From Thalassospira sp. (lineage in GTDB: Bacteria; Pseudomonadota; Alphaproteobacteria; Rhodospirillales; Thalassospiraceae), in assembly GCF_048059015.1 (NCBI RefSeq), contig NZ_JBLLNT010000005.1, positions 172,034 to 236,033 of the forward strand: 64,000 nucleotides of DNA. Reading direction: 5' to 3'. Both the position numbers and the translations under genes were made by a program. Numbering within the stretch: position 1 is the stretch's first letter; every line of letters starts with the position of its first letter. The notes below the pieces were generated by a model. It did no database searches. It saw nothing but the letters and a program-made list of their open reading frames with translations, and had not been told where the DNA came from. Shown one piece after another: positions 1,377-5,780 of the stretch.

Positions 1377-2540
1377 ATGAAGAACAGTATCGAACAGACG
1401 CCCGATCCAACCCCTACCGCCATTTTTGATGATGGATGGTCAAACGCGGGATGTGATCCGAACATATTGCCCGCCCGAGGACAAAAGGGGCGCGGTGCGG
1501 TGTCCAATATTGACGGGCGATTTGAGCGGCACATCCATCAGGGGGTTGATGATGGATGGCTGGGCACATTGGTGGAAGTTCAGGATGCCCCACATACCAA
1601 AACCACCCTTGGTATCGATGGTGCACGGTCTGTCATTACAAAGAACCAAAGTCCGGATGTTCCATTTGATCGCTCGATCAACCCCTATCGCGGCTGCGAG
1701 CATGGCTGTGTGTACTGTTTTGCCCGACCAACGCACGCCTATCTCGGTCTGTCACCGGGGCTGGATTTTGAAACCAAACTGTTCTGGAAACCGGAAGCCG
1801 CCAGTCTGCTGCGCAAGCAACTGTCATCGAAAAGCTATCAGCCCGAACCGATTGTGATCGGCACCAGTACTGATCCCTATCAGCCGGTTGATCGCGACAA
1901 GAAATTAACCCGGTCGATCATTGAAGTCCTGGCCGATTGCCAGCACCCGTTTTCCCTGATCACGAAAAGCGCGCTGGTCACCCGTGACATTGATTTGATC
2001 GCACCGATGGCCGCAAGAAACCGCGCATCGGTTGCAGTATCGGTCACAAGCCTTGATCATCGTCTTTCAAACCTTTTGGAACCACGTGCATCCGCCCCGC
2101 ATCGCAGACTGGATGCGATCCGGAAATTGTCTGAGGCCTGCATTCCGGTAACCGTTCTTTGCGCGCCAATCATTCCCGGTTTGAATGATATGGAAATCGA
2201 AAAGCTGGTGGCCGCCTGCAAGGATGCTGGCGCGCAATCGGTCAGCCATATTGTGTTACGCCTGCCGCTTGAAATTGGCGGGCTGTTTGAGGAATGGCTT
2301 GAAGCGCATTACCCGGATCGCAAGGCAAAGATCATGTCACTGATCCGGCAAATGCGCGACGGGGAAATATATCAATCAGAATTTGGCAAACGCATGCGTG
2401 GTACCGGCCCAATCGCCGATCTGATTACTCATCGCTTTAATGCGGCGCGCAAGAAACATAATCTGACCGGACGATCATTGAACCTTGATTGCAGCGGGTT
2501 TAAACGGCCCAGCGCCGATGGGCAGATGTCACTGTTCTGA
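1377..2540 (+). CDS. PA0069/Rv2578c-family radical SAM protein (SplB-like, putative DNA repair)
   Basis: CxxxCxxC in RSINPYRGCEHGCVYCFARPTH; GRGA N-terminal motif; C-terminal QMSLF. Confidence 0.9.
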   Translation: MKNSIEQTPDPTPTAIFDDGWSNAGCDPNILPARGQKGRGAVSNIDGRFERHIHQGVDDGWLGTLVEVQDAPHTKTTLGIDGARSVITKNQSPDVPFDRSINPYRGCEHGCVYCFARPTHAYLGLSPGLDFETKLFWKPEAASLLRKQLSSKSYQPEPIVIGTSTDPYQPVDRDKKLTRSIIEVLADCQHPFSLITKSALVTRDIDLIAPMAARNRASVAVSVTSLDHRLSNLLEPRASAPHRRLDAIRKLSEACIPVTVLCAPIIPGLNDMEIEKLVAACKDAGAQSVSHIVLRLPLEIGGLFEEWLEAHYPDRKAKIMSLIRQMRDGEIYQSEFGKRMRGTGPIADLITHRFNAARKKHNLTGRSLNLDCSGFKRPSADGQMSLF

Positions 2541-2569: not shown

Positions 2570-3889
2570 TCACCCGACCCGTTTGATTGCGGCATGGCGC
2601 TTTTTGCCAACCGAAAGTCTCAGCAACTCGCCATCGTCAAAGGCGTAGCTAAGAACGTGATGTTCTGGATCATCGACTTGCTTGTCTTCAATCCGCACAG
2701 CACCAGCCAAAACAAGCCTTCTGGCTTCGCTGTTGGATTTGGCAAACCCGGCCATCACGATCAGGGCTAAGACCCCCAAACCGTCTTTAAGTGCATCTGC
2801 GGTGAACTCGATGGTCGGAAGACCTTTGAGGTTTCCGTTTGCACCAAACACACCATCGACCGCCGATTTGACCGCATCGACGGCATCGTCGCCATGCGCA
2901 AGCCTTGTGGCTTCGTCGGCCAAAACGATTTTGGCTTCGTTCAGACCTGCACCCGACAGGTTTTCAAGCTGCTCAACATCCAAAAGCGGCAGATCCGTGA
3001 ACAGTCTCAGGAACCGGCCAACATCGCCATCCTCGCAATTGCGCCAGAACTGCCAGTAATCAAATGCACTCAGCCGGTCTGCATTCAACCAAACAGCACC
3101 TGCTGCTGTTTTTCCCATCTTCACGCCTGATGACGTGGTCAGAAGCGGTGCAGTCATGCCAAACACCTCATTGCCATCGACGCGCCGAACCAGATCAACG
3201 CCATTGATGATATTGGCCCACTGATCACCACCGCCCATCTGCGCACGGCAGCCAAAGCGACGCGAGAGCTCAAGAAAATCAAACGCCTGCAGGATCATGT
3301 AGTTGAACTCAAGGAAACTCAGGCTTTCCTGACGCTCAAGACGCGTGCGAACAGAATCAAATGACAGCATCCGGTTCACGGAAAAATGGCGTCCGACGTC
3401 ACGCAAAAGATCAACATATCCCAACTGATCGAGCCATTCGGCATTATTGACCAGCACGGCATCGGTCGGGCCGTTGCCAAACTTCAAGAACCGGTCAAAC
3501 ACCTGGCGGATACCTGCAATGTTGGTTGCGATCTGTCCATCGTTCAGGATCGGCCGGGCGTCCGAACGGAAGCTTGGATCGCCAATGCGCGTGGTCCCGC
3601 CACCCACCAGCACAATCGGCTTGTGGCCATGGCGCTGAAGCCAGCGCAACGTCATAATTGGCAGTAAATGCCCGACATGAAGGCTGTCAGCGGTTGCATC
3701 AAAACCGATGTAAACCGGAACGGCCTCGGATTTGGCAAGTACGGCATCAAGGCCATTAAACGAGGTGCATTGATGCACAAAGCCACGCGCGTGGAGGCTT
3801 CGCATCGCTTCAGATTCAAAGCTTGTCGCCGCGACTTCACTGGCGTTTTGCGGCGTTCGGATTTCTTCGATGGTATTTTCGATCTTCAT
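2570..3889 (-). CDS. tyrS: Tyrosine--tRNA ligase
   Basis: YIGFDATADSLHVGH (HIGH), QMGGGDQWANI, KMGKT (KMSKS), C-terminal S4 domain; ATG at 3889 follows AAGGA. Confidence 0.97.
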   Translation of the reverse strand: MKIENTIEEIRTPQNASEVAATSFESEAMRSLHARGFVHQCTSFNGLDAVLAKSEAVPVYIGFDATADSLHVGHLLPIMTLRWLQRHGHKPIVLVGGGTTRIGDPSFRSDARPILNDGQIATNIAGIRQVFDRFLKFGNGPTDAVLVNNAEWLDQLGYVDLLRDVGRHFSVNRMLSFDSVRTRLERQESLSFLEFNYMILQAFDFLELSRRFGCRAQMGGGDQWANIINGVDLVRRVDGNEVFGMTAPLLTTSSGVKMGKTAAGAVWLNADRLSAFDYWQFWRNCEDGDVGRFLRLFTDLPLLDVEQLENLSGAGLNEAKIVLADEATRLAHGDDAVDAVKSAVDGVFGANGNLKGLPTIEFTADALKDGLGVLALIVMAGFAKSNSEARRLVLAGAVRIEDKQVDDPEHHVLSYAFDDGELLRLSVGKKRHAAIKRVG

Positions 3890-3935
3890 TTCGGTTGGTC
3901 CTTTTAAGCGGACCACCACCGGGAGACCGGGTTAT

Positions 3936-3965
3936 GGAAAAACAAAAGGCCGCCCCGTGGCGGCC
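3936..3965 (-). terminator. Intrinsic terminator (attenuator) in tyrS leader
   Basis: Minus strand GGCCGCC-ACGG-GGCGGCC then UUUUGUUUUU, ~50 nt before the tyrS ATG. Confidence 0.85.
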
Positions 3966-4000
3966 GATCCTTGATTTTTACATATCAAAACGCGCCGCAC

Positions 4001-4051
4001 TTATGTGTGCAGCGGATAATAGGCGTTGTGATGTGCAATTACGTTTTCCAT
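4001..4051 (-). CDS. Putative tyrS leader peptide MENVIAHHNAYYPLHT
   Basis: Hand-translated ATG..TAA ORF with tandem TAT TAT directly before the first leader hairpin; too short for the ORF track. Confidence 0.8.
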   Translation of the reverse strand: MENVIAHHNAYYPLHT

Positions 4052-4058
4052 ACCCAAA

Positions 4059-4087
4059 GGCATATGGCGAAAATTTCCCGCGGTCAA
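4059..4087 (-). promoter_or_regulatory. Putative sigma70-type promoter of the tyrS leader
   Basis: TTGACC-N17-TATGCC, 7 nt before the leader ATG; -10 element is non-consensus. Confidence 0.45.
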
Positions 4088-4204: not shown

Positions 4205-4738
4205 TTAGCTGACAACGCGGTAACGCGCGTGAAGTGCCGGATTGTTCATCATGGTGGCACTGATCATTGGCTTGCCTGCGACCTCGTCGGCATTCTCTGA
4301 TGCCTTGACCTTCGCGCGGTCATCGCTGCTGATATTGCCAGTTTCGCTAAGCGCCAGATCGCGTGCCGTTTCAAAGAAACGAAGGCCACGCTTCTCCATG
4401 ACATACAGCGTTTCACCACCCCATTCCCCGGTCCAGACAAGACCAGAAAGGCCCGCCATTTCCTTTTCAATGCGGGTCGGCGAAATCGGCATGCCAAGGC
4501 AGGTGGTCAGAAGGAAGGAAAGTTCAGCTGCGGTAACACCGTCTTCGCAGCATTCATCGGCAAGAACGGCCATAACAGCCATGGTGACGACCTTTAGCGA
4601 AACCTTGTCCGTTTCCAGTCCCGGAAAACGGTTTTGCTGAAGCTCGACAATGTCATTGGCAATACGATCAACGTCCCCACGGATCACATATCGCCCACGC
4701 CATACGCGACAACTTGTTCTGACTTCCCATTCTCGCAT
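4205..4738 (-). CDS. Hypothetical protein with probable winged-helix domain
   Basis: ORF from ATG 4738; GVTAAEL...ISPTRIEKEMAGLSGLV...TLYVMEKRGLRFF looks like helix-turn-helix plus wing. Confidence 0.55.
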   Translation of the reverse strand: MREWEVRTSCRVWRGRYVIRGDVDRIANDIVELQQNRFPGLETDKVSLKVVTMAVMAVLADECCEDGVTAAELSFLLTTCLGMPISPTRIEKEMAGLSGLVWTGEWGGETLYVMEKRGLRFFETARDLALSETGNISSDDRAKVKASENADEVAGKPMISATMMNNPALHARYRVVS

Positions 4739-4825
4739 CTGTTTGTCCCACCCGTTTTTATTTGTCCCTGGGTGAAACGATACATCAACCATACATCACG
4801 TCAACATATTTTTCGACATTTTGTA

Positions 4826-5497
4826 TCATTTAGTACACTCAGAACGAAACCATTGATATCCAGCGGGGGAAACAGCGAATCCGTCTTCGTTTTCAATTGG
4901 ATCGAGATAACCGCGCGTCACCGCCACATGGAAATCACGGCTGAAGTTTTTAGGCATGCGCAAGTGATCCTGACGGCGCAGGATTCGACGAATATCATCA
5001 CGGCTCACAAAGCCCCGCCCATCACGATAATGCAGCCAGATCGCCGCAATCAGGATCGTTTCAGCAAAGCCACGCGGCTGCAAACGCCCGATCAGATCGC
5101 CAAGCGATCCCATGAAGCTTGTGATGAAAGCACCTGGATCAATGCCAACGCCGGGATCGGCCGAATAAGCAGCGCCACCAACAGCCTGTCCCTGCACGAA
5201 GTCAACCGAACGGGCAGCGCCCTGCCCGTCACTTTCCGCGCGTATCAGGGACTCATCAGAAGCCATCGCACCAGCATCCTGCCCACACAATGAATGCACA
5301 GAACCTGTATTTTGCGCAGCAGAACGCTCAGAACCAGTAGTGATATTTGACGGCATTTGCCCTGCCTGCATCTGCAACGGCTGACCAAACAAAGCCGCCA
5401 TCACAACAGGCAGGCGTGCAGGCGGGATCGCGCATTCGAGATCCACCGGCCCGAAATCCCCCTCGCCCGTCAGTTTGACGTGAATTATTGCTGCCAA
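4826..5497 (-). CDS. Hypothetical protein with C-terminal probable winged-helix domain
   Basis: Open frame; TTG at 5497 follows AGGAG (start uncertain); VSRDDIRRIL...PKNFSRDFHVAVTRGYL...GFAVSPAGYQWF. Confidence 0.55.
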   Translation of the reverse strand: MAAIIHVKLTGEGDFGPVDLECAIPPARLPVVMAALFGQPLQMQAGQMPSNITTGSERSAAQNTGSVHSLCGQDAGAMASDESLIRAESDGQGAARSVDFVQGQAVGGAAYSADPGVGIDPGAFITSFMGSLGDLIGRLQPRGFAETILIAAIWLHYRDGRGFVSRDDIRRILRRQDHLRMPKNFSRDFHVAVTRGYLDPIENEDGFAVSPAGYQWFRSECTK

Positions 5498-5780
5498 GGT
5501 TGCTACCACTCCTGATTTACACAACCGCAGTAACATACATTTTGTATAATATACAACACTATTTTTCCAAACATGTATCAATCAATACATTTTATGTTTT
5601 GTACGCAGACAATTTTGCCCTCGACAATCGGGCCACGCAGACCACACCATGAATGCAACAAATAAGGTACGGGCAGCCGACCCGTGCCCGACCCAAAATC
5701 AAGATCAAAGCGCCCTGCTACCCGCCCCCAACGCCCGGAAATCAGCAGGCCGATGCCACCAACAGGGAAGGACAAGATGA

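Follow-up and report, generated by a model that had tools for sequence, protein, structure and literature searches.

Attenuation by a ribosome translating a leader peptide is the textbook mode of control for Trp, His, Phe, Leu, Thr and Ilv. The Escherichia coli pheM-pheST, trpL, pheL and hisL systems combine a short upstream open reading frame (uORF) carrying tandem cognate codons with mutually exclusive 1:2, 2:3 and 3:4 helices and an intrinsic terminator, and in pheST, moreover, the gene under control encodes the aminoacyl-tRNA synthetase for that amino acid. Here, we describe an element with the same layout, likewise ahead of a matching synthetase gene, in Thalassospira sp. (RefSeq assembly GCF_048059015.1, contig NZ_JBLLNT010000005.1, positions 172,034 to 236,033; this stretch of 64,000 nucleotides is called the window). 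It is very probably an attenuator of the ribosome-mediated, leader-peptide kind, in which the supply of charged tRNA-Tyr governs transcription of an accessory tyrosyl-tRNA synthetase (TyrRS) gene, named tyrS2 below.

The Thalassospira element departs from the E. coli systems in its amino acid, tyrosine, in a uORF that is most likely leaderless rather than led by a Shine-Dalgarno (SD) sequence, in having two sensor codons and in serving a spare paralogue. It also adds two helices, one pairing with the 5′ AUG and one sequestering an SD, and matches no Rfam leader family. Vecchione and Sello reportedly described in 2010 the ribosome-mediated attenuation of Streptomyces coelicolor trpRS1, which encodes an auxiliary, indolmycin-resistant TrpRS; there too, a second, non-housekeeping synthetase is said to be preceded by a leader peptide with cognate codons and to be switched on when charged tRNA falls. 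The two systems belong to different phyla and concern different amino acids, and TyrRS2, the tyrS2 product, is compared by sequence motifs only.

The T-boxes of Bacillus subtilis tyrS and tyrZ likewise tie TyrRS genes, including a second copy, to uncharged tRNA-Tyr through antitermination, but T-boxes bind the tRNA directly and need no translation, whereas this leader has neither T-box features nor a match in Rfam. A survey from 2005 listed tyrosine control solely through T-boxes (PMC1262725). In Sinorhizobium meliloti, the trpL RNA starts with the ATG of its leader ORF and is leaderless, encoding a 14-aa peptide with tandem sensor codons (PMC7298713). This trpL-trpE(G) system (rnTrpL/peTrpL) resembles the Thalassospira element in being alphaproteobacterial, in its small peptide with tandem sensor codons and in its leaderless start (predicted for the latter), but it senses Trp, controls a biosynthetic gene, has been shown to function in trans and has no detectable sequence homology to that element. 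A preliminary description of this DNA, made from sequence alone, had known of no characterised Tyr leader-peptide attenuator on an alphaproteobacterial tyrS, and we likewise found no published Tyr-specific example on a proteobacterial tyrS in the accessible full-text literature, subscription papers excepted, and no Rfam family. The mechanism is ordinary; of moderate interest is the picture across the family, in which a spare, mobile TyrRS goes with a scaffold of swapped codons, a probable leaderless start and two extra helices.

The tyrS2 leader and its proposed switch

All elements of the leader lie on the minus strand, and the sequence elements and coordinates in the preliminary description all proved correct on re-reading. 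A −35 hexamer read from the sequence, TTGACC (4087–4082), is separated by 17 nt from a −10 hexamer, TATGCC (4064–4059), which lies 7 nt ahead of the ATG of a 16-codon leader ORF, MENVIAHHNAYYPLHT followed by TAA (4051–4001; stop at 4003–4001). Codons 11 and 12 are the tandem sensor codons TAT TAT (Tyr11 and Tyr12, 4021–4016), in a TATTAY motif that is invariant in 16 leaders. Segment 1, CGCUGCAC (4014–4007), starts 2 nt past Tyr12 and is the 5′ half of an 8-bp 1:2 hairpin (−13.8 kcal/mol); segment 2, GUGCGGCG (4000–3993), can partner either segment 1 or segment 3 and begins 1 nt past the stop, so that a ribosome at the stop would cover it. Beyond a spacer hairpin that forms the apical part of the antiterminator (3990–3969; UUUUGAU at 3990–3984 with AUCAAGG at 3975–3969) comes the terminator (3965–3948), a 7-bp GC stem made of segment 3 (GGCCGCC, 3965–3959), an ACGG loop and segment 4 (GGCGGCC, 3954–3948), with the U-tract UUUUGUUUUU (3947–3938) directly after the stem. 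A consensus scan recovered both the 1:2 hairpin and the terminator. The tyrS2 gene itself (3889–2570, ATG at 3889) encodes 439 aa with intact HVGH and KMGKT motifs.

In the proposed mechanism, the first transcribed base would be the A of ATG 4051 or its neighbour, and the 16-codon leader would be read as a leaderless mRNA. With ample Tyr-tRNA, the ribosome would reach the stop and cover segment 2, allowing segments 3 and 4 to form the terminator and RNA polymerase to halt in the U-tract; if no ribosome loaded, the 1:2 and 3:4 helices would both form and termination would again result. When Tyr-tRNA is scarce, the ribosome would stall with Tyr11 or Tyr12 in its A site and cover segment 1, and the freed segment 2 would pair with segment 3 (GCGGC with GCCGC, stacked on the spacer hairpin) before segment 4 exists. 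The terminator would then be precluded and tyrS2 transcribed. Translation of the uORF, the ribosome footprints and the tyrosine response are parts that we infer from the sequence; the footprint sizes behind the masking of segments are general knowledge.

Conservation, folding and codon swaps among leaders

We gathered 197 tyrS loci from genomes and metagenomes and split them by identity to the window protein (≥60.7% versus <60%). In the upper group, 13 of 13 loci had an ATG-initiated ORF of 16–17 codons with tandem Tyr codons (YY). Protein identity brought in four further members (Ensifer adhaerens, Azorhizobium, Hohaiivirga/Microvirga and Cohaesibacter), each with the leader, which is thus present in 17 of 17 loci at or above 60.7% TyrRS identity to the window copy. 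In contrast, none of the 184 tyrS loci below 60% identity showed this architecture; two contained unrelated YY ORFs that differ in both length and position. Scanning with an RNA model alone added two YY-tyrS loci, L238 and L204, for a total of 19 with a YY leader on tyrS2. The YY pair occupies codons 11–12, or 12–13 in the 17-codon leaders (Xanthobacter and L204), and the genera concerned are Thalassospira, Nitrospirillum, Asticcacaulis, Ensifer, Azorhizobium, Xanthobacter, Parasphingorhabdus, Cohaesibacter and Variovorax. A metagenome scan returned housekeeping tyrS genes almost exclusively, with one additional leader (L120).

Conservation within the leader is uneven, in a manner that supports the attenuator: the length of the uORF and YY at codons 11–12 are kept while the ten codons before them drift freely (MENVIAHHNA, MTQMNRHNQG, MVTTPPLCCT and MIKNAPIAAN are examples). 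In the 15 sixteen-codon leaders among the 16 folded, YY (nt 31) and the stop (nt 49, both counted from the AUG) hold fixed positions, preserving the spacing behind the proposed geometry, in which segment 1 would lie under a stalled ribosome and segment 2 under one that has reached the stop. Besides TATTAY, invariance extends to GCGG in segment 2, GCGGC in segment 4 and the stop, which lies within or beside the 1:2 loop. The element occurs once in the genome according to the RNA model, which reached E values as low as 1e-22 in distant genera. A cmscan of Rfam at E values up to 10 placed no family above threshold and gave no T-box match; look-alikes among small RNA (sRNA) families, such as Hrs13 (20.2 bits, where the gathering score is 52), were sub-threshold and driven by the terminator, and were set aside.

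The preliminary description had simply called the downstream gene tyrS. It does encode a complete TyrRS (Pfam tRNA-synt_1b at 1.8e-72, TIGR00234 at 352 bits and an S4-like C-terminal domain), but an accessory one: the Thalassospira genome has a second tyrS, the housekeeping copy (G000:C3:399197-400450), about 55% (54–55%) identical to tyrS2. The two differ in motifs, with HVGH and GGGDQW in tyrS2 versus HVGS and GGSDQW in the housekeeping enzyme, and share KMGKT. The accessory TyrRS also has an N-terminal extension of about 21 aa. Two tyrS genes were present in all eight leader-carrying genomes tested (G000, G005, G018, G041–G044 and G401), which besides the window genome represent Nitrospirillum, Asticcacaulis, Parasphingorhabdus, a Thalassospira metagenome-assembled genome and the Azospirillum-like G401, while a first sample of the genus revealed a window-type tyrS in only 2 of 24 other Thalassospira genomes. 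In a maximum-likelihood tree of 66 TyrRS sequences, 15 of the 17 leader-bearing proteins formed one clade with 100/100 support, and all 17 lay on one side of a branch. Members of this clade come from Rhodospirillales, Rhizobiales, Caulobacterales, Sphingomonadales and the betaproteobacterium Variovorax, whereas housekeeping TyrRS, including those of leader-carrying genomes, track taxonomy, which on phylogenetic grounds marks leader plus tyrS2 as an accessory module that has spread horizontally. It had been proposed to align tyrS upstream regions across Rhodospirillales and Rhizobiales; conserved YY and compensatory changes were found within the paralogue clade, but the housekeeping tyrS genes of these orders are without a leader.

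Folding of the 127-nt window leader gave −48.3 kcal/mol (z = −4.6, equalled by none of 200 shuffles). As the equilibrium fold favours the terminator, the antiterminator was judged on transcripts lacking segment 4. Under those conditions, GUGCGGC pairs with GCCGC(C)AC around UUUUGAU/AUCAAGG at −15.9 kcal/mol, consuming GGCCGCCAC, the whole 5′ arm of the terminator; the mutually exclusive 2:3 antiterminator of the preliminary description is thereby borne out, and it recurs in all 16 leaders. When these were folded individually, 1:2, 2:3 and 3:4 helices were present in the same places in every one, with energies of −11.7 to −15.9, −10.7 to −21.7 and −12.1 to −19.7 kcal/mol, respectively.

Twenty-one leaders were aligned with a covariance model (R1) built on the terminated state. 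In this alignment, 82% of cells were paired and 16 double-sided changes were seen, values reached in 0 of 500 shuffles each, and slid controls paired at 38–62%. On this comparative evidence the terminator and the 1:2 hairpin covary. The terminator is paired in 95.9% of cells over the 21 sequences, with a closing pair that is AU in nine, GC in five, UA in three and CG in one; the inner stem of the 1:2 hairpin is GCAC:GUGC in Thalassospira and CUCC:GGAG, CCC:GGG or UCUU:AAGA elsewhere. The base helix of 2:3 (GCGGC:GCCGC) is 97% paired versus 22–58% at slides of −3 to +2, a slide of +3 (87%) reflecting the register of a GCC-GCC repeat, and the place of the spacer hairpin is filled in other leaders by helices of differing sequence.

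The RNA model was also scanned over 400 alphaproteobacterial genomes (the class sample), over one order (that of genome G288) and over the genus, revealing homologous leaders that match in length and layout but stand ahead of other genes. Leaders of 15–16 codons with W-Y-F (TGG-TAT-TTT, at codons 10–12 in the 16-codon ones) in place of TATTAY precede a GNAT acetyltransferase of 137–191 aa at the class-sample loci L203 and L205, and all three aromatic amino acids appear to be sensed. Within the order of G288, where 89 of 138 genomes gave matches, 28 of the 29 loci read had W-Y-F before GNAT (L239–L266), the 29th being the YY-tyrS2 locus L238. A Y-Y leader, MTKAPFIAGLYYPSLS, stands before a gene of the prephenate dehydrogenase family (L213:1477-2420, on the minus strand of that locus), with a divergent terminator and a poor U-tract. 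Finally, Y-F (TAT-TTT) at codons 11–12, for example in MENAIIHHNAYFTSYT, precedes a stand-alone protein of about 92–101 aa that shares 58–66% identity with the S4-like, tRNA-binding domain at the C terminus of the window TyrRS; this unit occurs in L111 as well as in 19 or more Thalassospira genomes (L111:4516-4962; G001:C2:16922-17338; G007:C2:125029-125442). Most Thalassospira genomes lack the full tyrS2 and have the Y-F/S4-domain unit instead, whereas L111 and G587 contain that unit and the YY-tyrS2 unit in tandem.

Read from sequence, this series on one scaffold is a natural codon swap: the sensor codons change with the cargo while the scaffold stays constant, which argues that codons 10–12 act as codons and that overlap with segment 1 is the main reason why the peptide tail is conserved. 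Together with the conserved uORF and YY, the three helices and their covariation, it strongly supports the Tyr leader-peptide attenuator that had been proposed. Class-sample matches below about 31 bits resembled generic terminators, with the exception of L213 (29.7 bits), and L206 (33.9 bits, just below the three strongest class-sample matches) was rejected as a false positive made of the end of rpsD and its terminator. We also discarded the idea of UAU as a sensitising rare codon as uninformative, because a crude count over ORFs shows TAT to be more frequent than the other Tyr codon in most of these genomes.

Probable leaderless start and additional helices

In 15 of the 16 aligned leaders, the ATG is preceded at a set distance by a −35 of the form TTG(A/C), with 17 nt between it and the −10 (alignment column T10 invariant, T11 and G12 nearly so), and the TA of the −10 is kept at constant spacing in all of them, 6–7 nt ahead of the ATG. 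No aligned leader has a Shine-Dalgarno sequence before that ATG. Given this −10 position and the absence of an SD, the leader ORF is most likely leaderless, with a transcript start that the promoter predicts at or next to the A of ATG 4051.

The first 5–9 nt of the transcript can pair with a downstream site, in pairs that covary among lineages. The helix begins at A+1 of the AUG, nt −1 also being able to pair in many leaders. Its partner usually falls in the spacer between segments 2 and 3 (AUGAUC/GAUCAU, AUGGUC/GACCAU, AUGACC/GGUCAU, AUGACCGA/UCGGUCAU, AUGACAAAG/CUUUGUCAU and AUGACACA/UGUGUCGU), but the window lineage differs: there, the 8-bp helix, P0, joins the 5′-terminal AUGGAAAA (4051–4044) to UUUUCCAU (3941–3934) just past the terminator, a pairing that none of 300 shuffles equalled. 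Across leaders, 0–2 of 300 shuffles did as well in the 8–9-bp cases and 11–22 of 300 in most 6-bp cases, and in four leaders the pairing is weak. P0 would sequester the start codon of the leader, perhaps to limit translation to a single round or to protect the 5′ end.

The second additional helix is a hairpin between terminator and cargo start, GGUGGUCC/GGACCAACC in the window (3918–3892), which encloses the tyrS2 Shine-Dalgarno AAGGA (3903–3899). All 16 leaders place the SD in the 3′ arm of such a hairpin (mean z = −2.6), and it may act as a second, translational brake. A relay in which free segment 4 opens this hairpin was considered and rejected: in 15 of 15 leaders folded with 2:3 enforced (G005 was omitted as a duplicate of the window), the hairpin persisted.

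Alternative readings, a possible wider family and gene neighbourhood

Several observations weigh against the attenuator. The leader offers only two sensor codons, fewer than pheL or hisL and equal to E. coli trpL. The 2:3 base helix shows no double-sided covariation in the alignment, because its sequence is nearly invariant, and is backed by conserved complementarity alone; nor does the 2:3 stretch by itself fold better than shuffles (z = −0.7). At equilibrium, the terminator prevails in the whole transcript even with segment 1 masked, so that the switch would have to be kinetic, as is the choice in the trp attenuator. The SD hairpin is still folded in the modelled ON state, and read-through alone may not suffice for expression. 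Lastly, a consensus scan of the locus listed no sigma-70 site, owing to a weak −10 hexamer, TATGCC, that lacks the final T.

It is unlikely that the nascent peptide, or slow termination, operates the switch, which would then report general translation status or a small molecule rather than Tyr-tRNA supply. A conserved YY(A/P)(P/T/S/L) tail or a C-terminal Pro/Ser before the stop would be the candidate signals, and the C-terminal part of the peptide (YYPLHT, YYAPSS or YYATFP) is indeed more conserved than the N-terminal part, with a last sense codon that is usually NCA and a nearly invariant CAUA ahead of the stop. However, RNA constraint explains that conservation, as segment 1 and the 1:2 loop both share sequence with the tail codons, and the sensor becomes WYF or YF exactly where the cargo changes while the tail stays similar; YY also recurs ahead of a tyrosine-biosynthesis gene. 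We give a low probability to a further reading, in which the terminated RNA of about 110 nt or the 16-aa peptide is the real, trans-acting product and control of tyrS2 is secondary. The element has its own promoter and a strong terminator, bears a weak, sub-threshold likeness to sRNA models of the Hfq type (the Hrs13 match given above) and shares its architecture with the leaderless trpL attenuator, for which both RNA and peptide are active in trans (PMC7298713, PMC6614838). Against this stand its constant linkage to a downstream gene with a function that fits its sensor codons, its single occurrence in the genome and the lack of any Rfam family at threshold, and a role in trans would supplement attenuation, not replace it.

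It is very unlikely that the RNA is instead bound by tRNA-Tyr, in the manner of a T-box, or by TyrRS, in the manner of the thrS operator, the small ORF being incidental. Synthetase genes are often controlled in these ways and a conserved hairpin covers the tyrS2 SD, but the Rfam search at E values up to 10 matched no T-box and placed no other family above threshold, the length, frame, ATG and stop of the ORF are kept across very divergent sequences, and the SD hairpin and scaffold also occur before GNAT and prephenate dehydrogenase genes and so are not specific to TyrRS. Chance—an ordinary terminator beside a spurious short intergenic ORF—has next to no probability left: short ORFs and GC-rich hairpins abound, and no consensus site came up in the promoter scan, but the upstream gene terminates separately, the leader is present in 19 of 19 clade loci versus 0 of 184 outside, the helices covary and the RNA model reaches its very low E values in distant genera. 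On these comparative data, we regard the chance explanation as already refuted.

The attenuator may, more tentatively, belong to a wider scheme: a family of leaderless attenuators for aromatic amino acids, modular and moving horizontally (Y-Y, Y-F or W-Y-F at codons 10–12), with a three-layer switch and a back-up TyrRS as cargo. This is possible but clearly less probable than attenuation at tyrS2 itself. In its first layer, the covarying helix would hide the 5′ AUG once the spacer or U-tract has been made, leaving a single ribosome to decide; the second would be the choice between terminator and antiterminator of the trp type; and in the third, a constitutive SD-sequestering hairpin would silence leaky read-through. 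The cargo TyrRS, which extends over Alpha- and Betaproteobacteria, would be a back-up with different properties, such as resistance to an inhibitor or analogue or a higher affinity for Tyr, induced when the housekeeping TyrRS fails.

For annotation, the leader would provide a rule for a widespread second tyrS, flagging it as a gene inducible by starvation or inhibitors, which bears on natural resistance to TyrRS-targeting compounds. The YY, YF and WYF series on one scaffold lends itself to finding the minimum number of sensor codons, the way in which transcription and leaderless initiation are coupled and the contribution of the 5′ AUG-sequestering helix.

Two ORFs in the same orientation lie 5′ of the leader, at 4205–4792 (195 aa) and 4826–5581 (251 aa), both on the minus strand and without a match in Pfam or NCBIfam. 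The nearer one has its own intrinsic terminator (4180–4145, minus strand), a 13-bp stem followed by UUUUCGUUU that folds at −20.3 kcal/mol (z = −4.1), and leader plus tyrS2 would thus be a separate transcription unit. Gene context is wholly different in other genera, which leaves only leader plus tyrS2 as the mobile unit. A Thalassospira-type set of neighbours is kept in the window, L111 and L113: rhodanese, an AlaX-like tRNA_SAD editing protein, the two family-less ORFs, tyrS2, a radical SAM gene and an intimin-like IAT_beta protein. The radical SAM gene of the window (1377–2540, plus strand) is convergent with tyrS2, and the C-terminal ...RYRVV(S) of the ORF at 4205–4792 is retained in G018, L031, L111 and L113.

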